Shown here piece by piece: positions 1 to 64,000 of a DNA stretch of 64,000 nucleotides. Source of the DNA: an uncultured virus (IMG/VR IMGVR_UViG_3300030116_004023) (lineage: Duplodnaviria > Heunggongvirae > Uroviricota > Caudoviricetes); the IMG/VR virus record IMGVR_UViG_3300030116_004023; one strand, 5' to 3'. Both the position numbers and the translations under genes were made by a program. The first letter of the stretch is position 1; every line of letters starts with the position of its first letter. The notes under the pieces were generated by a model. That model did not search any database. It was not told the DNA's origin and was given only the letters and a program-made list of their open reading frames with translations.

Positions 1-100
1 AACGTCTTCCAATTCCTAAGTAGTACCCTAATACCCTTGAATGTCTGAACAGGTCTAAAATCGCATTCTAAGAGCATCTAGACCTATTCAATATAGCCAT

Positions 101-853
101 CTAGACTGTAGATAGATTATCTCTTACTAGATTTAATCTTTTGATCTTATATGATTCATGATTTTTTGGTTGTGTGCCATGTACCAATAAAGCAAAGCTA
201 TTATTTTGAGAAATTGCTAGACGTTCATCGACATCAATTTTTAATCCTAATTTTTCAGACTCATTTTCAGAATAAACCACTTTAGAGAATTGAAGATTAT
301 ATTTTTTGATTAGATGGTCTTGATTATTAGTCCCTAAACTAGCAATCAATTTGAAATTTTCAAGACTATCAATTTCATCAAGGTTATTAATCCAAAATGG
401 AATACTTGTAGTATAAGCATAGAAGATTATATCTTTATTATTCCTAGCTACTTTTAACCATGCTTGTAGGTAACGTTCATTGAAAAAATCTCCACTTGAA
501 TGTATCCTAACTATTTTACAGTTATGTTGCTTTAAACTACTATCAATTAAATCAGCCATTTTATCTACACTTTTATGGTGTTTTCTAAGAAGGTCAAAAT
601 TGTATTTATTGTTAGCTTTAAAATCAGGTCTATACTCTTCTAAACTGATTGCATAACACTTGTAAATTTTTTGGCAATCGTATGCATATGGACAAGTTGT
701 AACAGGTGGCAAATTGAAAATTTTTATATCTGATTTTTTAACATCTAACCAATTAGGAATTTTATCTAATTTTTGATTAGAATTTGAAAACTTTAAATAT
801 TCTCTATTTTCTGTATTCTCATCAACTAATTTTATGTACTTTGAATCTATCAT
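101..853 (-). CDS. Gene product 88 (GP88)-like protein, radical-SAM-like fold
   Basis: FNLP..TCP..C....CYA cysteine cluster, RIHSSGDF and FYAYT motifs typical of the phage GP88 family. Confidence 0.75.
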   Translation of the reverse strand: MIDSKYIKLVDENTENREYLKFSNSNQKLDKIPNWLDVKKSDIKIFNLPPVTTCPYAYDCQKIYKCYAISLEEYRPDFKANNKYNFDLLRKHHKSVDKMADLIDSSLKQHNCKIVRIHSSGDFFNERYLQAWLKVARNNKDIIFYAYTTSIPFWINNLDEIDSLENFKLIASLGTNNQDHLIKKYNLQFSKVVYSENESEKLGLKIDVDERLAISQNNSFALLVHGTQPKNHESYKIKRLNLVRDNLSTV

Positions 854-887
854 AATATCTCACTTTTAAATTGTATATTTTCAAGTG

Positions 888-916
888 ATTATATCAGCTA
901 ATAATTTATAATACAA
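888..916 (-). promoter_or_regulatory. Host sigma70-type promoter for the gp88-like gene
   Basis: Minus strand TTGTAT-N17-TATAAT with TGn extension, 35 nt upstream of ATG at 853. Confidence 0.75.
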
Positions 917-1560
917 GTTACGTTAAACTAACTAGGATTAAAGACTAATATTTTTATAGTCTGATCTAATGGAATGATTAAACAATTCTGATATCTGGAC
1001 TGAATCTTTTATTAATCCTAGCTTAGATAATCTAGATAATTCTTTAGTTATTGATTCCAAGTTTTTTAAGTCTTTTGTCTGAATGTTTATTTTATAAATC
1101 ATATTTCTTTAGTTTGATTCCTATTTTTTGAAAATTCTTACTTTGTAGATAGAAAATTTTTAATATAGTATCTAGTAGTTTGTAAACTCTTTTAGTTTGC
1201 TAAGGTATTATATTTTGTTTGTTTCCCTTGTGTTTGTTTCCTTATGTTTCCTTATAATATAAGTTTGTTTTATAATTTTGTCTGATATGTTTTCTAAGTC
1301 TTCTAATAATGTTTCTTCGTTCCTAGTTTTTTCTGCCATTGCGTTCCTCAGATTGCGTTCTAAGGTCATCATAATTTTTTCAAAGTGTTCATATACTGCT
1401 GTCATTCCTAATCATCCTATATTGTCAATCTGATAGTATTTTTTATTCCTAAACTCTTCTAGTATTTTCTCTTCCAACTCTTTAGGTGTGAAATTTGGAT
1501 TATCTCCAATAGTCTTTACTTTGATATTTTTTTGTTTCCTATTCTTAGCCACGATTATTC

Positions 1561-1845
1561 CTAATTCTTTACTTCTTCTAATCTCTCATAATGATAGTAA
1601 GATGCTGTCTTCCATTTATCTGCATAAGGTATGAAATTGAAATCATTAATTACTGCATTGTACTCATCAATTTTAGTGTCTCTTAGTTTAGGTGTATAAA
1701 CTGAATGATAAACTACATTTTTCTCAGCATATACAGTCAAACATTCTTGGCAATAATACTTAGTCTCAACTCCAATACTAGTTACGATTGTTTCACTATA
1801 TCCATCTACTATTTTTGATCTATTACAGTTATGACATTTTTTCAA
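1561..1845 (-). CDS. Hypothetical zinc-finger protein
   Basis: CHNC...CQEC pairs. Confidence 0.55.
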   Translation of the reverse strand: MKKCHNCNRSKIVDGYSETIVTSIGVETKYYCQECLTVYAEKNVVYHSVYTPKLRDTKIDEYNAVINDFNFIPYADKWKTASYYHYERLEEVKN

Positions 1846-2833
1846 TTTGTTCTCCTCTTATTACTGCATTCGAATTGTGTAATTTTTTCTCTTTTAGCCA
1901 AGTTTCATATTTCACACTTTGCCACTCATCCAAGTAAAACTCATCATCATCATTTTGTTTAAAATCATCTAGGAAATTTTCAACATTTTGATGGAATGTT
2001 TCATGGTCATTTATCTCCATACACTTGAAATAAATATCTGACCTTAATTGGTATGGATTTTCTAATCCTAATACCTTGTTACGTTGAATCTCAGATAAGA
2101 TAATTTGCTTTTGTTTTCTATTCAATTCTCTACTCATTAAAAAATCCTTTACTACTACTATTCATGGTAGCACAATACATATCAAAATCTCTAATCATAC
2201 TACCAATTTCAGAATCATAAACATCATATTTATCTCTTAGTTTACGAACATCACTTTGACCAAAATTTTCAGTCATCTTACCTTGCTGGATTTTAGTAAG
2301 TAATTTCTTATCAATTCTCTTTATATCTCTAATTAAATTTTTCATCATTTTATTTCCTAATCCTAGCTAGTTTTATCTTCATCTATAACTGATATGTATT
2401 TTTCTACTGCTTTATCTAATGAATCAAAGTATGAATAATCAATTTCATTCTCTAAGTCAAAATACTCTACTACAACTACATATTTACTACCATCATCATT
2501 GCAATATATCTTCACAATAGCATTATCATTATTCAGATATTTCTGAGACATTTTTTTATTAATTTTTGTATCCATTTTATCTCCAATCCTAGCTAGTTTT
2601 ATATTGCCAACTCTTCATCTTCTAAACATGGTTTACAATAATATTCGTAGCTAGTTTTATTTTCATGTTTGTATCTAGTTTCATTCTTACAACTGCCATC
2701 TTTTATCCATGAGCAAATATTTTTGAATCTACCAATCTCACTTGTATTTTTAATATTTTTTTTAATAGCATTACTATTAATTCTTCTCACGTTATCCTGA
2801 TAGACTTTATCTCTATAAGATAAAGTTTCTTTA

Positions 2834-3241
2834 TCAACTGTTTTTGGCATTATGTACAATCCTATAAGTCTTCTTATTACTTTTGATTAAATAAGTTGTT
2901 TTTATGTTAGCTATTCTATAGCCATTTTTTCTATCAACACCAACAATATTTTTATTCTTAGCATTAGTTAATCTTCTCTTCATATTGGCAACTTTAGTTG
3001 TTTCTGAGACATCTTCATTCTCTACAGGTTTTTTACTCTTCATGCTGAATGTTCTTAATCCTTTAGATGTTACATTCTCAATACCTACGAATGAATTTCT
3101 AAACTCTTTTAAAACAAGCCAATAAGCATACTCTTCACTTATGGGAATATGCTTATTTTCTAATGCTAATTCTAGACGTTTTTCTGAGACTAATTTTTCG
3201 ATCTCATCTTTAGTCAGTTTTTCATCATTTTTATTACTCAA
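2834..3241 (-). CDS. Hypothetical basic protein
   Basis: 135 aa ORF with AGGA RBS; no recognisable family. Confidence 0.55.
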   Translation of the reverse strand: MSNKNDEKLTKDEIEKLVSEKRLELALENKHIPISEEYAYWLVLKEFRNSFVGIENVTSKGLRTFSMKSKKPVENEDVSETTKVANMKRRLTNAKNKNIVGVDRKNGYRIANIKTTYLIKSNKKTYRIVHNAKNS

Positions 3242-3293
3242 ATTATCCTACTTTCTACTAATCTTTTGTATACTTTAAATCTTATCACAAATT

Positions 3294-3590
3294 CTATTTT
3301 TTATTCAGAAGTTTATCTCTATACTCTAAGTCATAATAATACTTAGGTTCATGTGGTTTACTATGGATTATGTTCTGACCTAAACTCTTCTCAACTTCTT
3401 TTAAGACTTCTTTAGGAATATCAACTTCTTGGAATCCACATTGTACACACTTTGGATTTTCATCATACAATTCTACCATGTTACCTGTTTTACACTTTTG
3501 ACATTTCATATTTAAATACCTTTCTTTGCTCTTATTTTGCGTTTTAAGAGCGATCTCTCGATCGCTCTTATAGTTTATACTATCCAACAA
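3294..3590 (-). CDS. Zinc-ribbon protein (true start probably the internal MKCQKC)
   Basis: CQKC...CVQCG; annotated N-terminus overlaps a hairpin and the upstream gene. Confidence 0.55.
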   Translation of the reverse strand: MLDSINYKSDREIALKTQNKSKERYLNMKCQKCKTGNMVELYDENPKCVQCGFQEVDIPKEVLKEVEKSLGQNIIHSKPHEPKYYYDLEYRDKLLNKK

Positions 3591-4635
3591 ATTCTAATGC
3601 CTTAGAAAATGCCCTAGCTTTATTTCTTGCTCTATCTCCTGATGGGATGAATGCGTTAGCTGATTCTCCACGCATTTTTCTAAAATCTTCAGTCTCTACA
3701 ATAGCATTGTAAATTGCCCATGATGTTCTAGCTAATTTTGGATGCTCTTCATTGAAGACATTGTATCTCTCCATAGCATTATCTCTAATAACTTGAGTAT
3801 TACTCTTCTTCTTCTCAATAATCGCAAAGTCTTCTAATTGTTTCTTAATCATTTTTGGTGTCAATTCTAGATTTTTTCTATTGTTGATTCTCTGACTAGG
3901 TTTAGTTTCTTGATAAGTATATTCAAGAATCTCAGTTACATCAGACTTCTTTAGTTTATTAGTAGCCATGCTATCCATAGCTTGTATTGTTTGTTCTTGC
4001 TTAGTAACTAATTGATTAAACATCTTAGAAAACTCTACTACTTCATCCCCAATACCTTTTCTATGACTTAAACCTAGTGAAACACTAGATGATTTTTCTG
4101 CTGAGACTAAAGCATTCTGACATACAACTCTGATAGGTGTAAAAGCCATCTGAAACTTACCTTGACCATCTCTAGAATCTACTATTAGCCAATATAACTC
4201 ATGATCTTCATTAGCTATTTTAGAATTTCCTAAATTCAAGGTCATGTATAATTTCTTACCATTACCATCAACACCAATAGTTTCAACAGGAAATTCTGTA
4301 GAAATTTTTTCGAAACTTTTAGCGACAACCTTTGGTTGTAAAATTTCATAATCTTTACCTACTGAATCAGATATTTTCCTGAATTTTTTATCCATTTTAG
4401 TTGGTTTTCTATAGATAGCATATTTATCTGTATCATCTATATCCCCATTTTCTAAATGTGCTTTAAGTGGTACTTTCTCAAGGTCAGCTAATAAGTCTAA
4501 TTCTTGAAGACCTTGTTTTACTGTTACCTTATCACTAGCTGAGAATGTTCTAATCGCTGAACGTGACCATGCTCTCTGTCTAGTTGCTAAGTTGTTGCCA
4601 AATAAATCTGTATTTTGTGAAGTCATTTTACTCAC
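3580..4635 (-). CDS. DUF932 (phage/plasmid-like, TIGR03299-type) protein
   Basis: DSRDG...AFTPIRVVCQNAL, VGKDYEILQ and TSWAIYNAIVE motifs characteristic of DUF932. Confidence 0.85.
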   Translation of the reverse strand: MSKMTSQNTDLFGNNLATRQRAWSRSAIRTFSASDKVTVKQGLQELDLLADLEKVPLKAHLENGDIDDTDKYAIYRKPTKMDKKFRKISDSVGKDYEILQPKVVAKSFEKISTEFPVETIGVDGNGKKLYMTLNLGNSKIANEDHELYWLIVDSRDGQGKFQMAFTPIRVVCQNALVSAEKSSSVSLGLSHRKGIGDEVVEFSKMFNQLVTKQEQTIQAMDSMATNKLKKSDVTEILEYTYQETKPSQRINNRKNLELTPKMIKKQLEDFAIIEKKKSNTQVIRDNAMERYNVFNEEHPKLARTSWAIYNAIVETEDFRKMRGESANAFIPSGDRARNKARAFSKALEFVG

Positions 4636-4681
4636 TCTTTCATACTTGTTTTCTACTAAAAAATAATAGTAGTTACTATTG

Positions 4682-4710
4682 ATAATACATGAATAAAAAA
4701 ACTATGTCAA
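4682..4710 (-). promoter_or_regulatory. Host sigma70-type promoter for the DUF932 operon
   Basis: TTGACA-N17-TATTAT on the minus strand; a repeat copy lies just upstream of the -35. Confidence 0.8.
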
Positions 4711-4771
4711 ACGTAGCTAGTTTTAACTAGCCAATATTAGCTAGGAATAATACTAGCTAGGATTAAACAAA

Positions 4772-4813
4772 AATACCTACTATTACAAAATATGAAAAAT
4801 AATAGTAGGTATT
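4772..4813 (-). terminator. Probable intrinsic terminator
   Basis: 14-bp perfect inverted repeat AATACCTACTATTA/TAATAGTAGGTATT followed by a T-rich run on the minus strand, just upstream of a promoter. Confidence 0.6.
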
Positions 4814-4941
4814 CTTATGGAAGCATTATGGTGTACTGACTTCCTGTTACTAATCGTTTCCATCAGTCTCTTACCTTGTCTTATAGAATGTTTATAATCC
4901 CATTCCACAGGAATTTAGACCATTCCTATTCCTAGTTTGTT

Positions 4942-5070
4942 TTATATTCTTGCCACTCTCCTATTCAGAAAGAATCTTGCACCACACTCACAGTATTCGA
5001 ATACATCATCATTTTCTTTCCTGTAAAGGTCTCTGCATATGTGTATTAGGTCATTCCTATTCCTAGTCAC
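4942..5070 (-). CDS. Small 42 aa putative metal-binding protein (not in ORF track)
   Basis: GTG start, translation MTRNRNDLIHICRD...YCECGARFFLNRRVARI; ends at a repeat copy. Confidence 0.45.
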   Translation of the reverse strand: MTRNRNDLIHICRDLYRKENDDVFEYCECGARFFLNRRVARI

Positions 5071-6614
5071 GATTGTTTCTTCCTATTCCTAATAATAGCT
5101 AGTTTTCTCTTCCTACGTCTTCTGTTCATTCTATGTGCCATCTTTATTCCTATTCGTATGAGTATTCTTTTAGTGTTTCTAACCAATCTAGATAGATTTC
5201 TTCTTCTGCATTCTCTCTAAAATACTGAATAAAGCATGACAATATTTCTTCCCTATCTTCTTCCTGTCTTAGTATGTCTACTAACTCTTGAAAGTGTGTC
5301 TTAAAACTATGACTAAAAGATAGATTCAAACAGCTATCATTCAAGATTCCTAAATCTAGCTTTCTTCCAAATAATTCATCTTCTTTTACTTGTACTAATG
5401 TCTTACTTGTCATGCTAATTTCCCTTTCCTGATCACATGGTTAGCTAGTCTACCATGCTTGTTCAAGTGTGATAAAACAACTGTACGTGCATCATACTTG
5501 TTTCCAATTTGTTTCATTGCTTTCTTGAAAGTCATCTCTTCAAAACTGTCTATGACTTTATTGTTCTTATCTAATACTTCAAATTTTTTCATTCTCTATC
5601 TCCTCTACTATGTCTGTTATTAATTCTCTATAAGCCATCTCTAGTGTAGGATTTTCGTCAGAATAAGCATCCAAATTGTATTCATGTATTTCTTTTACTC
5701 TGTCTACAAAGTCTGCTAGAGAACCTATCCCCTTATTTTCTAAGTATTCTGTCAATTTATCCATATTCATTGTGTATTCCTAATCGTAGCTAGTTTTAAC
5801 TGTCTGTAAGAACCTTAGAACCACGTCTTTCAAATGGTGTCCACACACTTGATGGATGCTTACCATCAATAGCAGATTTCTCGAATGCATCAAGTTGATA
5901 GACTGATAAATCTAACTTAACCACTTCTCTCAGTAGGTCTTCTCCTGACATATGTCTTATTTTTTCAATTACTGCGTCAGCTACAAAAGTCTCTTTCTCA
6001 TCTAGAAAGCCACCTTTGAATGCACCATAAACATAATGAAAGATAAAGTTTCTTATATCTGCCACATTAAGTCTTGAACTCGCTAATTTTGTTTCTATAT
6101 CTAATCTAATACTATTATCAAGCATCTTCATACTCCTTATTAATTGTTTCTTTATATTCTAAGTCTATCATAGCATCACTTTTTTTGTCGAAAGGTGTGA
6201 TACCCTCGAACCTAAACATTCTGTCTAAGCTATCGTACTCTGCACCTGTTAAAGCATCTGAAGTAGTCTTGAATAGTTGTGCTACTCTGTCAATCTCCGA
6301 AGCAACTAGTGTATCTATCTTATCTTCTCTGGTCATTTTTTTCTCCTTATCAATCCTTTATCATTAAAATAAAAGTTGGCATGAAAGTGTAGTTGCATAC
6401 TAGCTAGTTTCTTATCGTGGTTAGGATTATCGTAGTATGGATTATTGATCATTCTATATTCTCTGTTACTCTTTCCCATTTCTGTTTCGTAGCTAGTTTT
6501 TTCAAGCTAGGTAAACAAGCCATGTATGTTTCTTCATCATGAAACTTAGCTACTTCTTCTGAAGCATAACCTCTTTCAAAATATACATTAATCATTCTCT
6601 ATTCCTAGTTAGTT

Positions 6615-6905
6615 TTAATCTCTCCAAACAGTCTTCATGAAGTGATTATCATTTTTATACTCTTTCACTTCTTTCTCAATTTCTTCGTGTTCTCCACATA
6701 TACAATCCCAATCTAATTGTTCTTCATCAACAATTATAGGATAGTTTCCACCACATCTACTGTTATTAATACACTCGGCATAGTACCCAACTGAATGGAA
6801 ATCAAGCACTTCATTGCATTTTGGACAAGCTAACCCATCAAAAGCAGACTCGTACCCAATGTAATCACACTCAGCACAGTATCTTTTTATTTGAAAGGTA
6901 CTCAT
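6615..6905 (-). CDS. Cys-rich double zinc-ribbon protein
   Basis: CAEC..CPKC and C....RCG..CICG motifs. Confidence 0.6.
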   Translation of the reverse strand: MSTFQIKRYCAECDYIGYESAFDGLACPKCNEVLDFHSVGYYAECINNSRCGGNYPIIVDEEQLDWDCICGEHEEIEKEVKEYKNDNHFMKTVWRD

Positions 6906-7402
6906 TCTAAATTCTCCAATCTTCCATATAAAGTTATCCCATAATCGTAACCTTGTTTGTAGTAAAAGTCATGTTTATTATCATCTCTCGTGCCATGTAG
7001 TAATCCATCAGCAACTCCATGTTTGAACATCTCTATATAATTTTTACTCATTCAATTTTCTCCTCGCCACAATACGTACATACTATAACATCACAAACTA
7101 GATTATTTTCTTTACAAGCATAACAATCTAAGTATCTGAAATCTCTACATACGTGTAAATCTTTTACTGTCATAATTTATTAATCCTAGTTAGTTTTAAA
7201 GTAATCCAAGACTGTTTCAAAATCGAACCATCTTGATTTATCTTCGTTGAAAAATACTATTTCATCATCTTGCAGACCTATTGAATCTAAGGTCTCTAAT
7301 TCAAAATCCCCATCCATGTAGTCTGCTTTAAATGGCATCTTGCATCCTAAGTAACTTGTTAGTACATCTGAGATTAGGTTTATTAGTGTTTGGTTTTTTA
7401 TA

Positions 7403-7972
7403 TTAAATGTCATTCTTTACCATTTCTTCATTATAATATTTTTTATATACCTCGTACTTAGCAAGATTGTCATAAGCTGTTAGATCAGGTGTAGGTATCC
7501 AATCCTTATTAGGATAAAACACTCTTTCCAAAAGATATAGACATCTCCTTGTCCAACTAATACTTTCTACACTCCCCACAACAATTTCTAGTGTGGACTC
7601 TGCACCATAGTTAACTTCGTCATCAAGACGTTTAAGCAGTACAGGATAACTACAGTCTATACAATTCTCTCTTTCTTCTAATAAGCCATCAGGTTTACTT
7701 TTCCAATCCCAATCATCAGGTTCTGAAATGTGGTCAGCACAATCAAATGGGTCGAAGTAATGTGGTTTCATAGTGTTGTCAGTATTGTATGCTTCTTTTA
7801 GTAGCATCTCCTCAAACTTTTGTTCATCTGCTTCATAATCTGTTAGAGACTTATCAACAAGACAATAGGACTCTGCAAAAAAATTCCCATCTGCTCTACT
7901 CTCCTCGCCACTTTCATCTTCCCACTCATCATTTGTATAAACTGTTTGTAGCTTAAATTTTACTAATAACAT
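7403..7972 (-). CDS. Acidic hypothetical protein
   Basis: 189 aa, Asp/Glu-rich, AGGAG RBS embedded in a repeat copy. Confidence 0.6.
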   Translation of the reverse strand: MLLVKFKLQTVYTNDEWEDESGEESRADGNFFAESYCLVDKSLTDYEADEQKFEEMLLKEAYNTDNTMKPHYFDPFDCADHISEPDDWDWKSKPDGLLEERENCIDCSYPVLLKRLDDEVNYGAESTLEIVVGSVESISWTRRCLYLLERVFYPNKDWIPTPDLTAYDNLAKYEVYKKYYNEEMVKNDI

Positions 7973-9065
7973 TTTGTTCTCCTAATCCTAGCTAGTTTTA
8001 ATTTCTTCTACCCATATGCTTTCATCATCTAGGTCTACGTCCTTTTCAGATAGGAATGTAATCGCATCTTGCTCTGTCTCAAACTCTAATGTCTTATCAT
8101 TGTCATCTTTAGCATATTGAATACCATTCAGACCTATCACTCCACCCACGTTATCTGTTGCAACTACCCACTTGCTCATCGTGTTTTATCCTTATCTCTG
8201 AATAGAAAGTTTTCTAAACCCTTTATTCTGTCTGTCAATTCAATTTTATCGCCTATCAGTTTAGCTATTATATTATCCAAAGTATCCATTCGTTTTCTAT
8301 CAGACTCCATTTTTTTATCTATTGCTAAGAACCACTCTGCTATATGATTATTGTTCTTCATTAAGACTTTCATATCTTCTTTTATTTGTAACATTTTCTC
8401 GCCATCATCAGCAGTTGGTTTAAAATGTGCTTCATGTTCTTGTAACTTTTTATCCACGTACTTCACTTTCTGTTTGCTCTTTCTTTTAGAATACCACAAT
8501 TATTTTTCAATGTCTTTTTTTCTACTGTTCTTTAGTTTAGAGACATTCGCTAAACCTTTAGTTATAACTGAGTCTCTATGATCTCTGAAATTAGACAGTT
8601 TACTTGCTCTTTGTTTTAGATGTTCTAGGTTATCGTAGCTAGTATTAAGGTGTGACTTAGTGATCTTAATCAACATTCTTTTTCTGTGACTTACTAACTC
8701 CCAATATCCCCACACCTTTTTCTTATTCATCCACCACTCCGATTTTATATCCTATTGGATAAGATGTTTTTGTACCATCTTTAGCATAGAAAGTTATTTC
8801 TTTCTCAGTTGGTACTTCAAAGTCTAATGCTAACTTTGATACAGAAACTTTAGCTAGGAAATATTTAGTCAGGTTATCTCTATTGTTTTCAATAAAACTT
8901 GTTTTGATTTCTTTCTTGAAATACTTCTCGAACCAATACTTCAATCTATTGGCATCTAAGAACCATATCTTCTTAGCTAATCTGTTCTCTAAAGAACCTT
9001 TTTCATATCTATCATCTATCCATTGTATCATTGTATTTCTCCTGTATTCTAATCCTAGTTTGTTT

Positions 9066-11613: not shown

Positions 11614-11645
11614 ATTTTATTTCAAGGTACAAGTACACGTCATCC

Positions 11646-54831: not shown

Positions 54832-54840
54832 TTATATCTC

Positions 54841-55095
54841 CTAGGAGTCTTTGTCTCCTTTGTTACCTTTTATTGCTTCTTTAGCTGCTTCTACAACTTC
54901 TTCTGGAACCCCGCCCTCGTTTGTTACTTCAGGGCTGTCATCTTTCCCTCTAAGGTACATTAGTACACCTTGTAGGTTTTGTACTTGTCCGACTAGTTGT
55001 TCTCTGTGTGCATTTACTTTGTTTAGTTCATCGACTAAAGCTTCCATTTTCTCAGTAACTGCTTTTAAATCACTTTGTACATCTATCTCTGCCAT
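54841..55095 (-). CDS. Small coiled-coil protein
   Basis: 84 aa, AGGAG RBS. Confidence 0.6.
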   Translation of the reverse strand: MAEIDVQSDLKAVTEKMEALVDELNKVNAHREQLVGQVQNLQGVLMYLRGKDDSPEVTNEGGVPEEVVEAAKEAIKGNKGDKDS

Positions 55096-55166
55096 GTTTC
55101 TTTTCTCCTATGTTCTTTATCCCCTTTTTATTAAAGGGTCTTTATTATTATACTAAATTTTATTTC

Positions 55167-55493
55167 TTATTTACCATCCCAGAAACGATTACTTATTCCC
55201 GGCTCGTCTTTCCAACCACTTACCTTAGTCCAAGTACCATCATCATAAGTATACTTATTGTTTACCCACCTAGCAGTAGAACCATCGCTTTCTACATCTG
55301 TTCCTGATGGTACAGTAACTCCCGTAATCAAAGTACAATTACTACTATTTAAATCTGAAATATTCGGAAATCCTCTAGAGCCACTATCAAATGCTCCTAC
55401 TATAGTTTTGTCTGATTGAATGTCTACCGATTGGTCATCATCCAAAGCATATACTACTAATTTTGTGTCGTTTTTTACTAAAATTTTACTCAT
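55167..55493 (-). CDS. Tail fibre-associated small protein
   Basis: Paralog of 58289..58558 (MSKI..., DL.S.N.T....VT, KY.YD.GTWTK.S.W). Confidence 0.65.
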   Translation of the reverse strand: MSKILVKNDTKLVVYALDDDQSVDIQSDKTIVGAFDSGSRGFPNISDLNSSNCTLITGVTVPSGTDVESDGSTARWVNNKYTYDDGTWTKVSGWKDEPGISNRFWDGK

Positions 55494-55504
55494 CTAAATC
55501 TCCT

Positions 55505-58261
55505 TTACGTTGAATCTGGTAATGTTCCTTGAATTAATAATGTTGTTGAAGTTAACGCATGCCCTATTTTTGCATAACTTGTTGCTGTTGTTGTTAATGC
55601 CCCAGCAGACGTAAGATAATATAAACTTCCTGCCGATAAGCTACTTTGATTTGTAGCTACTGTACCATGTAATTGTATAGTACCTGTGGCTGTATCTGAA
55701 ATTGCTGAATTTGCTATACCTATAAATGCACCTGCATTGTCAGGTAAATCAGGAACAGCTCCATAAAGACTTGTACCATCTTCTGTAAACAAAACAATTT
55801 TGTTCCCAGTGCCCCCACTTACTATTTGAATTGCTGCATCTATATATGTGGTATACATTTTTTGTTGTTGTTTTGAAACAAATGACGTTCCGGAAACATA
55901 ACCAACACCTACTTGAATTAAATCAGTACCATTTGTTTTGGTTCTGTCTTCCATTGCATATACTATATTCCCACCACCTGCATCAAATACAGCGTTATAA
56001 TAACTTCCGTCTCCATCAACTAATACGTTTGCAGAACCCCAAGAACATGTGTTAGTGCTAGAACCTGTACATGTTCCTATATAAACCTCACCATCACCTA
56101 TAGAGTTATTGTAGAAAAATAATACTAATTTACCACTTGCAGCGTCAAAGCACAAAGCCGGATATATATTCGAGTCACCAGTATTAGTTTCTGTTACATG
56201 AACTTCTGAACCTACTGAAAATCCTGTACCACTTATAGTAATTACTACAGAGGTCATTTTATTACTATCGCTAGAGTCTAACCAACACAATACTATTCTG
56301 TCAGCCGCTGTATCGTAAGTAGCTTTTAAGCCTTTGCCATATAAGTACCAAGCCGGTCCTGCTGTGCCATGTATATCAGCAGCAGTCCCTAGTGATATTG
56401 TATTTGAACTGCCACCTGTAACGGTCATCACCCTACCTATTATTTCGTCATTTTGTGAAAATATGGCAAACATTTTATTATTGTCTGGGTCAAAAACTAA
56501 CTCGGCTGAAGTACCGGTACCATTGGCATCAAAGGCTCCACTACCTGTAAGACTAACTTCTTTTGCAGTATCTCTATCACAAGAGTTGTCTGAAGTATCT
56601 ACTGTTATTACATATGATTTTAAAGTATCACTTCCTGTATGAAGACATACAAATCTATTTGCATTCGTATCATATTCAACTTCACATAAATCAGTAGATG
56701 AACTTTCTACAACTAACTCGGAACCTATAGAAAAATCTCCATTAGAATCTACATCTACCACTTGAGCTGTTGTAGCACCACCATTACCACTATCTTTAAA
56801 CAAAACTAAAAACCTGTCATCATCTGGGCTATAAGCAGCGTCCAGAACAGCATTTATACCATTGTTTTGTATTGCAGTAAGGGTTGTATTATTAACACCT
56901 GTTTGTAAGGCAGAAACTGTTTTAGCTTTACCCGCAGATGTTATAGCAACTCTATCCCCTGCTGAAATATTACCATCAGCAACCAAATCTGTTGTACCCC
57001 CACCACTACCAATATATGTTTTTACATCGGAAGCTGGAATGGTTTTCATTGCTCCACCATCGTTTACTACAACTCCATCAGCATCAGCAAGTGTTATCGA
57101 ACCACCTACAGAAGTCCCACCATCAAGTAGGTTTAGTTCTGCAGCTGTCGCTGTTACAGCAGTTCCATTTATAGCTAGTTTACTAGTACCAATATTGAAT
57201 GTAGCATTGTCTTCTACTCTAGCTACTTCTGTACCATCGTATTGTTGGAATATAATATCTTTAGCGTCTGTAAGAGGTTTTATAACTACGTCACTAGAAG
57301 AGTTAGCAATGCTTAATTTATTGCCTACTAATCCTAAACTAGCGTTGTCTTCTATACGGATAACCTCTGTTCCGTCATATTGTGAAATAACTAAGTCGTC
57401 TGAATCAACTGCTGGTTTCATTATTACTTCCCCAGCCGTACCATCTAAATCAAAAGTAATTTGGTCAGTACCACCATCTTGAAGTTTTATATCACCAGTT
57501 GTAGAGTTTAAGTGTAACTCGCCAGTTGAGTCTATAGATATAGGTGTTGCTGCAATAGTTAATCCTGTAGTTCCATCATGTGTAAGGGTAGCATCATTAC
57601 CAGCACCTAAACTTAGAATAGCAGAATCAGATAACAACATTAAGTCGTCCCCTATAACAGCGTCTAGTGCAACACTTAGTCCACCATCAGTTTGTAAAGA
57701 ACCATCGGTTGTAGACGTTGCGTTGGTAGAGTCATCTGTTTTTATTATGCCACTAGCTGTAATTGTGGATGATGTTAAAGCTGCAGTGGCTAATGTCCCA
57801 CCAGCAACTGTTAGTGTATTACCACTATGAGTTAAAGTTACATCTCCATTGTTAAAGTTTATTACACTACCTGAAGCTAAGAATAAATCTGACCACATCA
57901 AACTTGTAGTTCCCAAAGCAGTACCATCACTAGTTCCGGGAGAAAGACTATTTTCAGCTAACTCTACTTCTTTTGCATTATTAGCATAAAAGTTTATTTT
58001 GTTAGCGTCTTCAAAATCTATTTTAGTCTGGTCGTCCTCACCAATCTTAATATCTGTGGCGAGTAAGGAGGTTATACCTGTTTGGGCTGCATCAACATTT
58101 AATGTATTTGTAGATAGTGTTATACCTGTCCCTGCTGAAAAAGCAGTTTTAGACATAGCAATAGCTGCAGATGCATTAATGTCTGCATTAACAATAGCAC
58201 CATCAGTTATATCATCTGATGATAATGCTGCTTGTGCTGGCTCTTTTCCTACAAATCCCAA
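55505..58261 (-). CDS. Tail fibre/receptor-binding protein 1
   Basis: Gly/Ser/Thr/Asp-rich, TTG start with GGAGG RBS, repeated YD/FD blade-like motifs. Confidence 0.8.
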   Translation of the reverse strand: MGFVGKEPAQAALSSDDITDGAIVNADINASAAIAMSKTAFSAGTGITLSTNTLNVDAAQTGITSLLATDIKIGEDDQTKIDFEDANKINFYANNAKEVELAENSLSPGTSDGTALGTTSLMWSDLFLASGSVINFNNGDVTLTHSGNTLTVAGGTLATAALTSSTITASGIIKTDDSTNATSTTDGSLQTDGGLSVALDAVIGDDLMLLSDSAILSLGAGNDATLTHDGTTGLTIAATPISIDSTGELHLNSTTGDIKLQDGGTDQITFDLDGTAGEVIMKPAVDSDDLVISQYDGTEVIRIEDNASLGLVGNKLSIANSSSDVVIKPLTDAKDIIFQQYDGTEVARVEDNATFNIGTSKLAINGTAVTATAAELNLLDGGTSVGGSITLADADGVVVNDGGAMKTIPASDVKTYIGSGGGTTDLVADGNISAGDRVAITSAGKAKTVSALQTGVNNTTLTAIQNNGINAVLDAAYSPDDDRFLVLFKDSGNGGATTAQVVDVDSNGDFSIGSELVVESSSTDLCEVEYDTNANRFVCLHTGSDTLKSYVITVDTSDNSCDRDTAKEVSLTGSGAFDANGTGTSAELVFDPDNNKMFAIFSQNDEIIGRVMTVTGGSSNTISLGTAADIHGTAGPAWYLYGKGLKATYDTAADRIVLCWLDSSDSNKMTSVVITISGTGFSVGSEVHVTETNTGDSNIYPALCFDAASGKLVLFFYNNSIGDGEVYIGTCTGSSTNTCSWGSANVLVDGDGSYYNAVFDAGGGNIVYAMEDRTKTNGTDLIQVGVGYVSGTSFVSKQQQKMYTTYIDAAIQIVSGGTGNKIVLFTEDGTSLYGAVPDLPDNAGAFIGIANSAISDTATGTIQLHGTVATNQSSLSAGSLYYLTSAGALTTTATSYAKIGHALTSTTLLIQGTLPDST

Positions 58262-58288
58262 TTGTTTATTCCTCCTTTATTATTATAC

Positions 58289-58558
58289 TTAGTTTTCCCA
58301 ATCATCATTCCAATCGCTTCTTTTAGTCCAAGTACCACTGTCGTAGTCATACTTGTCTCCAAAATAATCTGACGGGGCATTAGTTACATTTTCAACTATC
58401 GTAGAGTTACCACTATGTAAGTCTCCAATTATTAGCTCTGGTGGGTCTCCTACTATTATTTGGTCAGATGTAACAGTTAATGTTTTATTGTCTGGGTAAA
58501 GATATTTTACTCGTTTAGTTTGTTCTGCTACTCCAGATGAAATTATTATTTTACTCAT
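58289..58558 (-). CDS. Tail fibre-associated small protein
   Basis: Paralog of 55167..55493. Confidence 0.65.
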   Translation of the reverse strand: MSKIIISSGVAEQTKRVKYLYPDNKTLTVTSDQIIVGDPPELIIGDLHSGNSTIVENVTNAPSDYFGDKYDYDSGTWTKRSDWNDDWEN

Positions 58559-58568
58559 TTATTCTCTC

Positions 58569-61157
58569 CTAATCTGTATTATTTACTCTGGGTGGATTTA
58601 CTAATAATGTAGTTGCCGTAAGTGCCTTCCCTGCAAATACTGAACCAGATGTAGTTGATAATGCTCCAGCAGAGTCTACATAATACTCTGTTCCAATCGT
58701 CAAAGAGCTTTGCCCTGTAGCTACACCACCCGTAGTAGTAATAGTACCAGAAGCATCGTCAGAAATTGCATCATTTGCAAACCCAATAAAGGAACTAGCA
58801 TTTTTTGCTAGCGTTGGTACCAAAACAAAAACTCCTGTATCTCCTGTTGTACTCTTATATGAAATAACGGTTCTATTTGAATTGGTGTCATAAATAGCAT
58901 CTACATACTCTACGTTCCCTCCACCAGTTACACTGGCTCGAGCGTGGATTCTAGTTCGTGCCTCTACATTATAAGTAGCACTTGAACCTGTACCAGAAAT
59001 TGTTCCTACGGTACCTAGTATTCCATTCTGACCATGAATAAAAATAACTTTTTGGTTGTCAGGGTCATAAACACCAGATACAAAATTCCCCATAGTTGTG
59101 TCATCTGAGGTATCTTCTATAAGAACATGTTGTCCTGCCGTAATAGTTCCTGAAGCACTAGTAAACACCCAAGCTTCAAATTGACTACTCAAGCCTTGAT
59201 GACTAGCTACATTTATATTTTTATCTGGGTCATGAATAAGAATGCCACCATTCCCAGCAGTTGTTATTTCGTTATCGTTAGTTAATCGTACAGCTGTTCC
59301 TCCTGTTATTGAGTTGTCTGAACTATCTATTGTCAATGCTCTAGCATAAGGATAATTACTATCTTCTGTGTTTCTATAAAGTATCATAACTTTATTATCG
59401 TTTGAGTCAAAACAAAGCATGGGGATTTCTGTAGCAGGAGTAATATATAATTTGCTCCCAGCACTTTGAATATCATTATCAGTACTTCCTCGAACAGTAA
59501 ATGCTTGAACTACACATTTGTTAGAATCATCCGCATCCTCGTAAGAAACCAAAACTCTATTAGCATTTGAATCAAACACACTAATAACTTCTTTATTGGA
59601 ATTATCTACTGATTGAGCACTGCCTTTTGAGATTGTGTTAGTACTTGTATTATCTACTTCCCACACAACAGCTCTTATACCGGAAGATGTAGGATATGTA
59701 GAAACAAATCTATCTACATTTGTATCATATACCATGCCTCTAAATTCATTGGTAACAGCGGCACTTTCAAGAACCACTGCGGTACCAAAAGATACATCCC
59801 CAGCAGATGCATCTGTTATCCCCCCTACAATTGCCGTTGGGTAGTTACTATTACCACCATCTCTATATGTTATACCAATCTTGTTGTTGTCTGGGTCAAA
59901 AGCCATTGATTTATAATAGACTTGGTCTGTTTCAATCTCAGTTGCGTTGGGACTAGAAGCGGTTCCAAAAGCTTTCCCTGTTTGGAGGGATTCAGTTGTT
60001 TCTACATCTCCATCACTACGAAGTGAAACTCTATCTCCAGCTGAAATATTCCCGTTAGCTGTAGCCGTGAAGCTACCACCACCTCCACCAATATATGTTG
60101 AAATATCAGATGCTGGTATTTGCTTAGTAGTTGTACCATCAATTACAATAAATGCGTCTGCATCGGCAAGAGTAATTGAAGAAGTAGATTTAGCAGAACC
60201 ATCTAAAAGATTTAGCTCTGCAGCAGTAGATGTAATATTAGTTCCCCCAATATCAAGCGTAGTTGCTGATAGTTCACCAGCTACTGTTACTATATTTCCA
60301 CTAGCAGTTAATGTTATTAAATCTTCATCGCCCACAGGACCAATTGTACCTGTAGTTTTTATTACTAACCCACCATCGTCTATAGTTAGTATATCTGTAC
60401 CATCTATGTCGAATACCATCTTACCGTGGTCGGCAGTTCCTGACGCTGTCGCAGTAGAAAAATGTACTTCCTCTGCAGTCTTGTTTGAACTACCATTAAG
60501 TACTTCTATCTTCAAAGCCTCTGTGGCACTTGTACCTATACTAAAAGAAGCATCTGCATTATTATTATCGTCAAATAAAGTTATATCCCCATAAGTTAAT
60601 GCTAAAGTGTTTGACACAGTACCCATAGCAGTAACACCTGCTAACGTAGTAATATTAGGTTGAGAGGCTGTTGAAATTGTAGCGGCTAAGTTTCCCCCAG
60701 CAATTGTTAAAGTATTGCTAGAGTGAGTTAGTGTCACGTCACCATTATTGAAATTGATTACAGAGCCATCTGCTAAGAAAAGGTCTGACCACATAAGGCT
60801 TGTTGTACCCAATGCAGTTCCGTCACTACTTCCCGGTGATAAACTGTTTTCTGCCAGTTCAACTTCTTTTACATTGTTTGCATAAAAATTAATTTTATTA
60901 TTATCTTCAAAATCAATTTTAGTTTCGTTGTCTTCACCAATTTTTATATCAGTTGCTAATAAAGATGTTATTGTTGTTTGTGCAGCATCAACGTTTAAAG
61001 TGTTAGTTGATAGAGTAACACCATTTCCAGCACTAAAGGCTGTCTTAGACATAGCTATAGCAGCTGAAGCGTTTATATCAGCATTTACTATTACACCATC
61101 TGTTATGTCATCTGAAGATAGAGCAACTCTAGTAGGTTTTTTACCAACGAATCCCAA
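58569..61157 (-). CDS. Tail fibre/receptor-binding protein 2
   Basis: First ~155 aa nearly identical to 55505..58261; TTG start with GGAGG RBS. Confidence 0.8.
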   Translation of the reverse strand: MGFVGKKPTRVALSSDDITDGVIVNADINASAAIAMSKTAFSAGNGVTLSTNTLNVDAAQTTITSLLATDIKIGEDNETKIDFEDNNKINFYANNVKEVELAENSLSPGSSDGTALGTTSLMWSDLFLADGSVINFNNGDVTLTHSSNTLTIAGGNLAATISTASQPNITTLAGVTAMGTVSNTLALTYGDITLFDDNNNADASFSIGTSATEALKIEVLNGSSNKTAEEVHFSTATASGTADHGKMVFDIDGTDILTIDDGGLVIKTTGTIGPVGDEDLITLTASGNIVTVAGELSATTLDIGGTNITSTAAELNLLDGSAKSTSSITLADADAFIVIDGTTTKQIPASDISTYIGGGGGSFTATANGNISAGDRVSLRSDGDVETTESLQTGKAFGTASSPNATEIETDQVYYKSMAFDPDNNKIGITYRDGGNSNYPTAIVGGITDASAGDVSFGTAVVLESAAVTNEFRGMVYDTNVDRFVSTYPTSSGIRAVVWEVDNTSTNTISKGSAQSVDNSNKEVISVFDSNANRVLVSYEDADDSNKCVVQAFTVRGSTDNDIQSAGSKLYITPATEIPMLCFDSNDNKVMILYRNTEDSNYPYARALTIDSSDNSITGGTAVRLTNDNEITTAGNGGILIHDPDKNINVASHQGLSSQFEAWVFTSASGTITAGQHVLIEDTSDDTTMGNFVSGVYDPDNQKVIFIHGQNGILGTVGTISGTGSSATYNVEARTRIHARASVTGGGNVEYVDAIYDTNSNRTVISYKSTTGDTGVFVLVPTLAKNASSFIGFANDAISDDASGTITTTGGVATGQSSLTIGTEYYVDSAGALSTTSGSVFAGKALTATTLLVNPPRVNNTD

Positions 61158-61169
61158 TGTCTAGTCCTC

Positions 61170-61496
61170 CTATGTACTTATGTCACCAACAACACTACAC
61201 CATACATCTAGTGAGCTTGCTGTGTCGGTATCTACTTTTAAGGCATCTCCATTTGCTAAAACAAATCTACTACCACCATCAATTAGTTCTAAGGAAGAAC
61301 CTGTAGGTATTGAAACCTGTTTAATTAAATAATAATCGGCACTACTTACAGTAACAAAAGCATCTACTACAATAGTACCTGAATGAATGTTGGTTAATCT
61401 TAAGCTAACAACTGCATCATCACCATCTGCAGTGAATACAGTTGCCCCTGAAGTTCCTACACTTCTTTGTATATGTCTTTCAAAATCTTGTGCCAT
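61170..61496 (-). CDS. Small beta-rich virion protein
   Basis: YLIKQVSIP.GSSLELIDGG...L..GD.LKV pattern common in marine phage fibre regions. Confidence 0.6.
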   Translation of the reverse strand: MAQDFERHIQRSVGTSGATVFTADGDDAVVSLRLTNIHSGTIVVDAFVTVSSADYYLIKQVSIPTGSSLELIDGGSRFVLANGDALKVDTDTASSLDVWCSVVGDIST

Positions 61497-61541
61497 TTAT
61501 TTCTCCTATAGTATATTATACTATCATAAATACTAAAAATT

Positions 61542-63998
61542 CTATAGTGCTATTGCCATTGCTGTAGCAAATCCTTTTGAAGCCGCCGTAGAGTTTATAT
61601 GTGTTGTCAATGTATCTAAGCCTACTTTCTTCAATGTTCCACCATCTGAATATAATAATTCATCTGCATCTGCTAATCCTGATGATATTTCTGTTTGTCC
61701 TGAAATTACATTGTCATTTAGCATTCCAGATTCTACAGCATCATTTGCTATTGTTACAGCACCACTAGATGATAAAGTTACATCTCCACTTACAGCTACT
61801 GGATTATAGTTTGTGTCATCACCTACTAAAATATGCCCAGCAGTATTTGTGTTCATAAACAAATCATCACCAGTAATAGTCAAGTCTCCTGTTATAGATA
61901 CTCCACTATCATTGATTTCCATTTGGTCGGTGCCATCAATATCAAACACCATCTTTCCGTGGTTTGCTGTACTAGAAGCAGTTGCTGTTGAGAAATGTAT
62001 TTCTTCAGCAGTTTTATTAGAGCTTCCATTTAGCACTTCAATACTAAGAGACTCTGTTGCTGATGTTCCTAGTTTTAGTGAAACATCGGCATTGTTAGCA
62101 TCTTCGTATATAGTTAAATCACCACCAGTTAATGCAGTAATAGCTTGCGAAGAATCAACAGCAATAACAGAGTTAGTTGCAGTTAATCCTGTACCAGCAA
62201 ATAGTGTAGCTACGTCTGCTATGTTTTCTTTAGCGTGGCTTCCTGTAGCTCCACCATCTAAGAATAATATATAGTCCCCATTAGCAATTGCAGCTTCTCC
62301 AGCTTCTGTTAAGTCAACGTCTACTTGGTCGGCTTGAACATCAATTAAGTTACCAGCAGCAACATTTAGGGTGACATCTCCGTCTGTTCCCCCACCTGTT
62401 AATCCTGTACCAGCAACTACGCTTGTTATATCACCATCTATTGCTGTTCCATTAATTCTAAATGTTTTTCCTGATGCTAAATTTATTCCTGAATCATCAA
62501 TATCAAAAATGTCTGTACCATCTACATTAAATGTGAACTTACCATGGTCACTAGTACTCGATGCTGTTGCGGTTGAAAAAGTAACTGACTCAGCTGTTTT
62601 ATTACTACTACCATTAAGAACTTCTATGCTTAGAGCTTCCGTAGCACTCGTACCCATTTTTAAAGATACATCAGCGTTATTTGCATCTTCATATATTGTT
62701 AAGTCACCACCTGTAAGTGCTGTAATAGCTTGTGAAGCATCCACACCTATTACTGAAGAAGATGCCGTCAAACCTGTCCCTGCAAACAATGTTGCTAAAT
62801 CTGCAACAGCTTCTTTTTTAGTAGCATTACTATCATTAGCATCTATAAAAGCTATACTATCGCCATCAGCTATAGCACCTGCAGAAAGAGAATTTAAACT
62901 GTCTCCAGTTACAATATCTGTTCCATTTACTGAAAAAGTTAAACCTGAACCTATATCAATACCGCCATCATCAATAGTAAGTATATCAGTTCCGTCAACA
63001 TCAAAAACCATCTTACCATGATTAGCTGTAGAAGAAGCTGTAGCGGTACTAAAGTGTACCTCTTCAGCAGTCTTGTTGCTACTACCGTTGAGCACTTGTA
63101 TTGTCAAAGACTCAGTAGCACTTGTTCCCATTGTTAGTTTTACATCTGCATTATTTGCATCTTCAAATATATCTAAGTCACTTCCTAAAGATTTATTGGT
63201 AAGCGTTTGTGTAGCTACTGTACTTACAAGCTCGCCATTACCACCGGCTGGAAGTGTAAGAGTATTTGTTACTCCAGCACTATGTGGTTGTGCTTGTACT
63301 GTTTGAGCGTGAGCGTTTGATGACTCACAATAAAATAAAACTTTAGCTACAGAACCTGTCCCTGTTCTAATGTCTATTGTTCCATCAGATATACTAATAC
63401 CTCCGGAACTTCCATTACCATCCATAACAACTTTACCTGAACCATTTGGTAACAAACTAATATTACCATTTGATGTAGATACAATGTCGTTACTATTTAC
63501 ATCTAAATCTCCACCTAATTGAGGTGTGGTGTCTTCTGAAACGTTTGAAAGAGCTGAAGATGTGGCTAATCCAGATACAATAGCTGACCGAGTAATTTTT
63601 TTCAGTCCTCCGCCAGATGTATCAATTGCTATAAAAACATCATCATTTGCTACTGAAGAAATTTCTGATAGACTTGCAATATTTGAAATATTAGATGCTG
63701 CTAACGAACCACTAAGAACAGTGGATGTAAGTGTACCACTTGATGGATTGTATGTTAAATTACCATCGGATTCTAATCCAAGGTTACCTCCATCAACATC
63801 CCCGCCTGCTGTAAATACAACTGCATTATCTTCATCAGTACTTTCATTATCTGTAATAGTTACAGTAGTTGCTATACTAGCAGTCCCTGTAACATTTCCT
63901 GTTAAATTACCAGAAAAAGTAGTAGATGTAAGAGTCCCACTTGACGGATTATATGTTAGGTTCCCATCAGACTCTAGTCCAAGATTTCCTCCGTCAAC
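61542..63998 (-). CDS. Long repetitive tail fibre protein, 5'-truncated by the window edge
   Basis: Frame stays open from 63455 to 63998 (VDGGNLGLESDGNLTYNPSSG...TTPQLGGDLDVN); ends ATAMAIAL. Confidence 0.8.
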   Translation of the reverse strand, partial: VDGGNLGLESDGNLTYNPSSGTLTSTTFSGNLTGNVTGTASIATTVTITDNESTDEDNAVVFTAGGDVDGGNLGLESDGNLTYNPSSGTLTSTVLSGSLAASNISNIASLSEISSVANDDVFIAIDTSGGGLKKITRSAIVSGLATSSALSNVSEDTTPQLGGDLDVNSNDIVSTSNGNISLLPNGSGKVVMDGNGSSGGISISDGTIDIRTGTGSVAKVLFYCESSNAHAQTVQAQPHSAGVTNTLTLPAGGNGELVSTVATQTLTNKSLGSDLDIFEDANNADVKLTMGTSATESLTIQVLNGSSNKTAEEVHFSTATASSTANHGKMVFDVDGTDILTIDDGGIDIGSGLTFSVNGTDIVTGDSLNSLSAGAIADGDSIAFIDANDSNATKKEAVADLATLFAGTGLTASSSVIGVDASQAITALTGGDLTIYEDANNADVSLKMGTSATEALSIEVLNGSSNKTAESVTFSTATASSTSDHGKFTFNVDGTDIFDIDDSGINLASGKTFRINGTAIDGDITSVVAGTGLTGGGTDGDVTLNVAAGNLIDVQADQVDVDLTEAGEAAIANGDYILFLDGGATGSHAKENIADVATLFAGTGLTATNSVIAVDSSQAITALTGGDLTIYEDANNADVSLKLGTSATESLSIEVLNGSSNKTAEEIHFSTATASSTANHGKMVFDIDGTDQMEINDSGVSITGDLTITGDDLFMNTNTAGHILVGDDTNYNPVAVSGDVTLSSSGAVTIANDAVESGMLNDNVISGQTEISSGLADADELLYSDGGTLKKVGLDTLTTHINSTAASKGFATAMAIAL

Positions 63999-64000
63999 AT

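Follow-up and report, generated by a model that had tools for sequence, protein, structure and literature searches.

Two regimes of restriction-site avoidance meet at a narrow switch in the genome of an uncultured marine phage

The DNA analyzed here, called the window below, is a stretch of 64,000 nucleotides from an uncultured virus of the Caudoviricetes (IMG/VR record IMGVR_UViG_3300030116_004023). It represents ~64 of the ~81 kb of the genome of an uncultured marine long-tailed phage. The window was divided into a left block (positions 1–14800) and a right block (14851–64000). The left block is under extra selection, acting on double-stranded DNA, against about ten restriction-type words. 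GATC shows the reverse distribution, with 16 sites on the left and one on the right. We see an even chance that the left block acts early and probably enters the cell first, as the first-step-transfer DNA of phage T5 does, and that it has in addition had a separate and recent history of GATC.

Words were counted against two null models. In the first, codon order was shuffled within genes, which keeps codon usage and amino-acid content (300 shuffles for the left block, where 13,017 coding nt were covered, and 100 for the right block). In the second, synonymous codons were shuffled with the proteins fixed. Under the codon-order null, the left block contained no GCNGC (11.1 expected), GGNCC (7.1), CASTG (10.7), GGTGA (17.7), ACTGG (12.5), AGSCT (12.9), ACSGT (6.0) or GGATC (13.5), and CCNGG was absent as well. 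For GCNGC, GGNCC, CASTG, GGTGA, ACTGG and AGSCT, none of the 300 left shuffles reached zero. The left block was also strongly poor in ACGG, ACCG, CCAG (4 observed, 42 expected) and AGGC (6 observed, 35 expected), the last two being depleted 6–10-fold. GATC was present at 16 copies against 43 expected. The right block had the left-avoided words at expectation (observed/expected: GCNGC 97/106, CASTG 46/47, AGSCT 52/50, CCAG 247/265). It avoided GATC (1/143), CCWGG (0/41), GGCC (0/41), GCGC (0/20) and CGCG (0/10), and the last four are missing from the whole 64 kb, which an earlier sequence-only reading of the window had not noted. Apart from GATC, every word avoided on the right was avoided on the left too, and the left block avoided more. 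When all 136 strand-merged 4-mers and 512 5-mers were compared, the most left-depleted were CCAG, AGGC, GGTGA, ACTGG, CACTG, AGCCT and GCAGC, all normal on the right. Enzymes that presumably recognize avoided words are Fnu4HI, Sau96I, TspRI, BsrI and BstYI.

The sequence-only reading had listed 16 left GATC sites, from 143 to 14160, and one at 43203; all positions were exact, and these 17 sites are all that the window contains. It had also reported that GCWGC, GGWCC and CCGG are missing left of ~15.8 kb. Their first sites lie at 16871, 20143 and 15899, and the window contains 84, 31 and 42 of them, respectively. The depletion on the left survived the codon-aware correction, with zero counts against 6–18 expected for many words. 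The suggestion that low GC explains part of the left absences held for CCGG and failed for the other words. Because of low GC and very rare CCG and CGG codons, only 1.8 CCGG sites were expected on the left and their absence was not significant; for CCSGG, the expectation was only 0.5. The observation itself was confirmed as real and far beyond chance.

The avoidance was also visible in the proteins. The 42 left-block open reading frames (ORFs; 4297 aa) encoded no Ala–Ala (8.5 expected), Gly–Pro (3.7) or Pro–Gly (3.7), as had been noticed by eye, and no Ala–Gly (7.5) or Ala–Pro (4.2) either. Right-block proteins contained 93 Ala–Ala, 24 Gly–Pro and 20 Pro–Gly. With the proteins fixed, the left expectation was 14.1 for ACTGG, 12.2 for AGSCT, 14.1 for GGTGA and 8.4 for CASTG (none observed), and 30.9 for CCAG (4 observed). 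For GCNGC, GGNCC and CCNGG, it was just 2.0–2.5 (2.0 for GCNGC), because the left proteins lack the dipeptides that force these words. The left avoidance is enforced at two levels, by the missing dipeptides and by codon choice.

The two orientations of each word were counted separately. Left observed/expected counts were 4/21.5 for CCAG and 0/21.1 for CTGG, 6/24.7 for AGGC and 0/9.0 for GCCT, 0/4.8 for CACTG and 0/6.3 for CAGTG, 0/5.3 for GCAGC and 0/4.8 for GCTGC, and 0/6.8 for GGATC and 0/6.5 for GATCC. Depletion was strand-symmetric for CCAG, AGGC, CASTG, GCWGC, AGSCT, ACGG and GGATC. Depletion of both orientations points to recognition in double-stranded DNA, and selection at the RNA level was rejected for the left-only words.

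A switch near 14–16 kb had been proposed by eye, and three tests agreed on a position in or beside the non-coding stretch 14632–14985. Pooled left-avoided words changed at 14750–14850, from 0.88 to 20.2 per kb. The interval for GATC was 14160–16080. Blind tetranucleotide segmentation placed the strongest split of the window at 14500–14750; it scored 1313, where the highest value from 200 block permutations was 358. The edge of the switch is ~100 bp wide and lies inside the conserved upstream leader of the left block. An assembly chimera was rejected because the boundary is also crossed by independent contigs: one from another study spans 11002–15495 with 3 differences, L045 matches 9315–21349 at 99.97%, and C189 (20.6 kb, ~88% identical) crosses the junction.

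The leader (14632–14985, minus strand, 354 bp) was compared by aligning the window with six related contigs. It is better conserved among relatives than the flanking genes, and the first gene behind it varies by relative. Three direct repeats of TTAAGGGAACC(GA), conserved in relatives, lie at 14933–14982 (minus strand), to the right of the switch and so in the right regime. TTAAGGGAACC occurs a fourth time at 15324–15334 (4 matches against 0.94 expected). Two hairpins occupy 14850–14903, one with an ACGT-rich stem of 16 pairs (14868–14903) and one formed by CCAGA...TCTGG (~14850–14868). Going rightward, the first left-avoided words appear in this hairpin stretch. A 14-bp perfect palindrome, AGAACATATGTTCT, lies at the switch (14817–14830), is conserved in relatives and is a possible operator. 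The window has 2 sites of its core GAACN4GTTC, a number also reached by 8 of 100 shuffles and therefore no excess over chance. We take GAAC-N4-GTTC to be the SOS-box form of Gram-positive bacteria and Dehalococcoides; this makes the form of AGAACATATGTTCT interesting in view of the lead to a Chloroflexota host that the reductase gene gives (see below).

Observed and expected GCNGC counts were compared in the window and six junction-spanning contigs under the codon-order null. The left block had 0/10.8 in the window, 0/7.4 in C189, 1/10.2 in G002, 0/5.2 in G003, 0/7.3 in G004, 3/9.6 in G006 and 0/7.6 in G007. In the same order, the right block had 97/105, 17/19, 69/57, 40/46, 28/37.5, 17/21 and 11/14.7. 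The left blocks of G003 and G004 have few genes in common with the window and are 38–77% identical where shared; their different gene sets indicate that the zero counts were not simply inherited sequence. ACGG and CCAG were avoided on the left in five of the seven contigs, CASTG and ACTGG just in the window and C189. We also examined 27 of 80 metagenome loci, chosen as long enough, with a dinucleotide null. GCNGC was absent from 13 of the 21 left blocks of at least 2 kb, and all 11 right blocks were at or above expectation. A search for related loci in viral contigs via a DUF932 protein found none.

Alignments with relatives also broke at the boundary. G004 is 93.5% identical to the window at 15960–18064, and its left block is largely unrelated. 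G003, G004 and G007 lose nucleotide homology to the window no more than ~1 kb from the boundary, and neighbouring left-block genes differ sharply in identity to L051 (85% against 98%). Relatives exchange left blocks at this boundary.

GATC status was then compared among relatives. The DnaB-like helicase gene contains the sole right-block site (43203–43206). In the metagenome loci, GATC was missing from 11 of the 21 left blocks and from 8 of the 11 right blocks. C189, G002, G003, G004 and G009 had none in either block, and L013 (30 sites in 11.7 kb), L056, L059, L073, L103 and L120 tolerated it in both. The left block of C189 is 88–90% identical to that of the window, yet it has no GATC; the eight window sites that could be aligned with it each differ by one or two bases. 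Neutral gain was simulated by placing the observed substitutions at random on the C189 sequence (2000 simulations). On the left, 8 gains were observed and 10.2 ± 3.2 simulated. On the right, none was observed against 11.3 ± 3.3 simulated, and none of the 2000 simulations was as low. The simulation puts all change on one lineage; when this was halved, the right block was still depleted. As the left gain was neutral and the right gain zero, the lineage of the window tolerated new GATC sites in its left block and excluded them from its right block. Neutral re-accumulation after a general relaxation was rejected, because the right block differs from C189 by 12.1% and gained no site.

GATC status flips between close relatives. 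At 12675, 8 of 16 related contigs had GATC and 8 had GACC, with no tracking of overall similarity; L046 (98% identity) has GACC. A post hoc check found no RGATCY among the 16 left sites (4.8 expected from flank frequencies), and no GGATC or GATCC. AGATCT was absent (8.8 expected under a second-order Markov model). RGATCY made up 0 of 43 GATC sites in L120 (14.1 expected) and 3 of 40 in L073 (12.4 expected). In G006, GATC had the same direction as in the window (observed/expected 27/26.5 on the left and 12/27.7 on the right). These data are most simply explained by separate recent GATC histories of the two blocks, with the left block avoiding RGATCY only and the right block excluding all GATC. 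The right block would come from, or have stayed in, a lineage that excludes every GATC. Both blocks comply with a host that cuts RGATCY, so the phage would be viable there. The reversal implies that avoidance sets change fast and that module exchange can put two host histories in one genome.

The left block has features of a separate gene module. It consists of 42 small ORFs on the minus strand with 27–35% GC, and it runs off the window at position 1. Among the ORFs tested, 3 had a family match by Pfam and 7 by PHROGs; most are without a known family. The motif TAAAACTARCTAGGATTA had 25 matches in the window against 0.34 expected, of which 23 were in the left block (439–13167, minus strand) and just 2, both weak, right of 14.8 kb. 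Of the copies compared with the ORF list, most lie 5–13 nt before a start codon and run into a GGAG ribosome-binding site. The motif may serve the whole left block as an operator or a site of translational control, and it marks the block as one regulatory unit. It includes the palindrome CTAGCTAG, and copies of the motif explain some of the excess of CTAG in the left block. C189, which has the same left-block type, had 18 copies; G002, G003, G004, G006 and G009 had 0–1.

Relatives carried repeated consensus promoters of the sigma-70 type in their left blocks, TTGACA-N18-TATACT five times in G009 and TTGACA-N18-TAAAAT three to four times in G003. In the left block of the window, sigma-70-like matches were not above chance (64 against 72 expected). 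The five G009 promoters lie at 2934–5532 of L206 (22934–25532 of G009) on the plus strand, opposite to most genes, so part of the G009 early block is probably transcribed divergently.

The first left-block gene (14131–14631, minus strand, 166 aa) is present or absent within the population. It was missing in three of four runs through a joint from 14110 to 14644, and it is absent from C189 too. After the first two genes, there is a terminator-like hairpin followed by a T run on the coding strand (13347–13376, minus strand). A conserved core gene of the block, here called gene X (12314–12832, minus strand), encodes an acidic protein of 172 aa and was used as the query to gather relatives; 284 relatives were found in metagenome contigs. 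Its AlphaFold model had a pLDDT of 70.3, and Foldseek found no match in the PDB at E ≤ 0.001. A run of small, strongly acidic proteins (pI 4.0–4.6) without family match is encoded at 5150–12832, including those at 7403–7972 (189 aa, net charge −24) and 10550–11026 (158 aa, net charge −17); another acidic one is at 9527–10072. The proteins of this run are candidate DNA mimics. These gene features fit an early or accessory module.

The sequence-only reading had offered different host defences or a different host history as the cause of the contrast between the blocks. Each was supported for one part of it. Different defences fit the left-only avoidance, which is strand-symmetric, starts in the leader of a separately regulated block and recurs with different left genes. 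Different history fits the GATC reversal, for which status flips, blocks are swapped at the boundary, and the gain relative to C189 was neutral on the left and zero on the right. Both blocks meet the same cell, and a host that selects against GCNGC would cut the 97 right sites unless they were protected; the asymmetry therefore needs a difference in exposure. Such a difference is known to come from polar or stepwise entry combined with anti-restriction functions that are expressed early. The left block would be inside the cell and working before host restriction is disarmed. Entry of the genome would be polar or stepwise with the left block leading, and left-block products would then protect the ~100 GCNGC and other sites that arrive later. 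The GATC reversal would have a separate cause, with modules exchanged at the boundary and GATC avoidance coming and going between close lineages. Restriction enzymes as the cause of the left avoidance, the leading position of the block on entry and the protection encoded by it are what we infer from this pattern.

Several results weigh against this reading. Contig depth was ~23–24 in the left and right blocks alike (run X5; one figure per contig, so that a short repeat is possible), giving no sign of a T5-like long terminal repeat that contains the left block. Homologues of T5 A1, A2 and dmp, or of Ocr and ArdA, were not found among 49 proteins searched with Pfam and 42 with PHROGs, by which distant ones could be missed. 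No exact DnaA box (TTWTNCACA) was present at the boundary. G009, a relative rated 100% complete, is cut elsewhere, so that the map is circular or the ends are unplaced. The left block of G009 showed no clear GCNGC avoidance, with 10 sites against 7 expected in the dinucleotide model, and the left blocks of L103, L110, L111, L114, L119 and L120 keep GCNGC. Left-only GCNGC avoidance is a trait of a sub-group rather than of the whole family and is weak or absent in distant relatives. For GGTGA, GAAGG and GAGG, the left depletion was mainly on the sense strand. We take these to be parts of the Shine–Dalgarno complement, and their depletion may reflect avoidance of internal ribosome-binding sites instead of restriction. 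Sixteen GATC sites in a leading block would be fatal if the host cut GATC, so the reading needs a host that cuts RGATCY at most or does not cut GATC at all. A third compositional boundary was found at ~45.5 kb (segmentation score 837 against a permuted maximum of 330). Observed/expected counts were 105/222 for TTAA and 14/31.9 for TTTAAA in 14851–45100 (head and replication), and 115/141.5 and 20/15.7, respectively, in 45100–64000 (tail module). This boundary shows that module history alone can produce domains.

History might accordingly explain everything, which we consider unlikely. The left region would then be a mobile cassette region from phages of other hosts, its missing words and its GATC sites would be donor signatures, and order and timing of entry would have no role. 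The strong mosaicism seen with G004 and L051, the flips of GATC status among close relatives, the ~45.5-kb module boundary with its own TTAA signature and the missing asymmetry in distant relatives all favour such an account. Against it, GCNGC had the same direction in the window and six junction-spanning contigs with differing left gene sets. In addition, both blocks meet the same host, which would cut the 97 right GCNGC sites unless they were later protected, and the left-avoided words include the right-avoided ones apart from GATC.

Composition and translation constraints might have produced the left absences without any restriction pressure, through low GC, rare codons, a shortage of Ala, Gly and Pro residues and selection against Shine–Dalgarno-like words within strongly translated early genes. 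Such constraints are consistent with the low left expectations for CCGG, for CCSGG and, with the proteins fixed, for GCNGC, with the rarity of CCG and CGG codons, and with the sense-strand depletion of GGTGA, GAAGG and GAGG. Codon-preserving shuffles nevertheless expected 6 to 42 copies of words that were absent or nearly absent, and seven words or word families were depleted in both orientations. The complete lack of Ala–Ala, Ala–Gly, Gly–Pro and Pro–Gly in 4297 residues would itself be left unexplained. We regard this explanation as improbable.

For GATC, a functional asymmetry was considered, in which a host GATC reader acts only on late DNA or transcripts, for example as a system activated after host shut-off, and early genes are exempt. 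The word is palindromic, and GAUC in RNA is therefore indistinguishable from GATC in DNA; we know of no GAUC-specific ribonuclease. Over the same divergence from C189, the right block gained no GATC and the left block gained it neutrally, G006 had the same direction, and the exact genotype of the window was found in several studies. Because of G006, functional exemption of early DNA keeps a place among the explanations, and we give it a slim chance. Most relatives lack GATC in either block, the left block of C189 has none, and recombination accounts for the data without a new mechanism.

Self-nuclease avoidance, in which early phage nucleases that destroy host DNA cut these words and DNA present at that time lacks them, is very improbable: a preprint by Davison proposes it for T5 A1 (10.1101/866236), a staphylococcal-nuclease-like protein is encoded just downstream of the G009 left block, and the window encodes two HNH endonucleases and two exonucleases, but about ten words would need several site-specific nucleases, none was recognizable in the left block by Pfam or PHROGs, and closely related lineages avoid different sets of words, which is what host enzymes would produce.

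We return to the reading of the left block as early DNA that probably enters first. Findings of this kind are known, in which the phage DNA used first avoids restriction sites. In T5 and BF23, restriction sensitivity comes only from sites in the first-step-transfer region (PMC10644984; 10.1101/866236). The left block resembles this DNA in T5, BF23 and other Tequintavirus phages in its many small genes without assigned function and in its repeat-rich non-coding border. Sites matter only inside the T5 block, and the left block here is without about ten words that are normal in the rest of the genome. The T5 injection-stop border has DnaA boxes; the 354-bp leader here has three direct repeats, two hairpins and a 14-bp palindrome but no exact TTWTNCACA box. 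Unlike the T5 block, which lies in a ~10-kb terminal repeat, the left block has the same depth as the right block. The window also differs from T5 in having no A1, A2 or dmp matches and no exact DnaA boxes, and the block makes up ~18–23% of the genome here against 8% in T5. Very distant matches aside, its capsid and terminase are also unrelated to those of T5 and of every other cultured phage. The likeness to T5 would be a matter of logic, not of membership.

T7-like phages offer a second comparison. For Murciavirus and Type I restriction–modification, only motifs in the early-injected leading region matter, and a 2025 study argued that site location matters and that selection acts on the region injected first (PMC12455610). 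Selection there falls mainly on the part injected early, and sites elsewhere do no harm, which resembles the left-only avoidance of the window. Further likenesses to this leading region are co-directional genes and a variable early region with its own control. Unlike T7-like phages, the window has a sigma factor and no phage RNA polymerase found by Pfam or PHROGs. With the same tools, no single-subunit RNA polymerase was found in the G009 counterpart of the ~17 kb outside the window either. The window also differs from T7-like phages in its long tail, with tape-measure and tube proteins, and from Murciavirus in avoiding many short Type II-like words and not one Type I motif.

Avoidance on the scale of whole genomes was also compared. 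Sharp reportedly described genome-wide restriction-site avoidance in phages in 1986, and Deschavanne and Radman are said to have shown in 1991 that GATC is counter-selected in enterobacterial phages by Dam and MutHLS. Rusinov et al. (2018) studied such avoidance with the phage genome treated as one unit (PMC6286503), and phiX174 is devoid of GATC (PMC5014478). The window is like these cases in being without CCWGG, GGCC, GCGC and CGCG throughout and in the right block being nearly without GATC. It differs from genome-wide analyses in having two regimes side by side. The near-loss of GATC from the 49 kb of the right block resembles Dam/MutHLS-linked counter-selection. The enterobacterial case is different in that GATC-tolerant sister lineages exist here and the host lead is marine Chloroflexota.

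Tentatively, and short of an even chance, we propose that the switch marks the leading end or an injection boundary, in an abundant, uncultured marine family with T5- or T7-like stepwise entry whose early block encodes broad anti-restriction functions against about ten Type II-like specificities. If so, the mode of entry and the leading region would be readable from sequence alone. Such edges could then locate early anti-restriction genes in metagenomic phages, and the small acidic proteins would be a pool of new ones. With a ~100-bp edge, about ten specificities and recurrence in relatives, the window is an unusually clean example among uncultured marine phages of what can be seen from sequence only.

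The rest of the window was annotated with Pfam and PHROGs, which assigned head, packaging, replication and tail modules. A simple caller applied to the minus strand only, with a minimum length of 45 aa, found 104 ORFs that together take up 94.6% of the window, and all sizeable ORFs across the window are on the minus strand. The assigned genes, likewise on the minus strand, encode an SU10-type major capsid protein (21761–23095), the portal (27308–29314), ribonucleotide reductase (30046–31989), large and small terminase subunits (32014–34181), a sigma factor (44067–44591), tail tube and tape-measure proteins (49446–53229), a fibre of 1246 aa, family A DNA polymerase, DnaB-like helicase and primase, RecA and RuvC. 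No tRNA genes were found in the window. Megablast with 1–16000 and 30000–50000 found no nucleotide match in cultured phages, and tblastn with capsid and terminase queries gave only very distant matches there, so that no cultured phage is close. In IMG/VR, the terminase had 304 matches, and related contigs are numerous in marine metagenomes.

On the map of the window, the two ends of the relative G009 (81,555 bp) meet between 58558 and 58569. It follows that the genome map is a circle of ~81 kb, and ~17 kb between position 64000 and position 1 is absent from the window. The G009 counterpart of the missing part (13050–16966 of L205, which is G009 1–20000) encodes the staphylococcal-nuclease-like protein, a NUDIX-domain protein of 1036 aa and two other proteins, each of >1200 aa and without family.

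The nearest cellular genes to the ribonucleotide reductase were 57–64% identical and came from marine Chloroflexota, SAR202 and Dehalococcoidia assemblies. Marine Chloroflexota as the host is a lead from this one gene, nothing more. For a few of the reductase-bearing contigs in these assemblies (72.5 and 87 kb), the DNA may itself come from phages and have been binned with a genome.

Repeats were found in two places of the right block. The large proteins encoded at 55505–63998, upstream of the tail genes, have internal and mutual repeats, including a 196-nt unit present four times at 60394–63181 and a 300-nt pair at 57768–58067 and 60664–60963. A 49-nt unit rich in GAT and GAC codons occurs in three tandem-like copies at 23436–23586, inside the gene for a 293-aa protein beside the capsid gene. 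These copies encode an acidic repeat, and the 293-aa protein is a possible scaffold.

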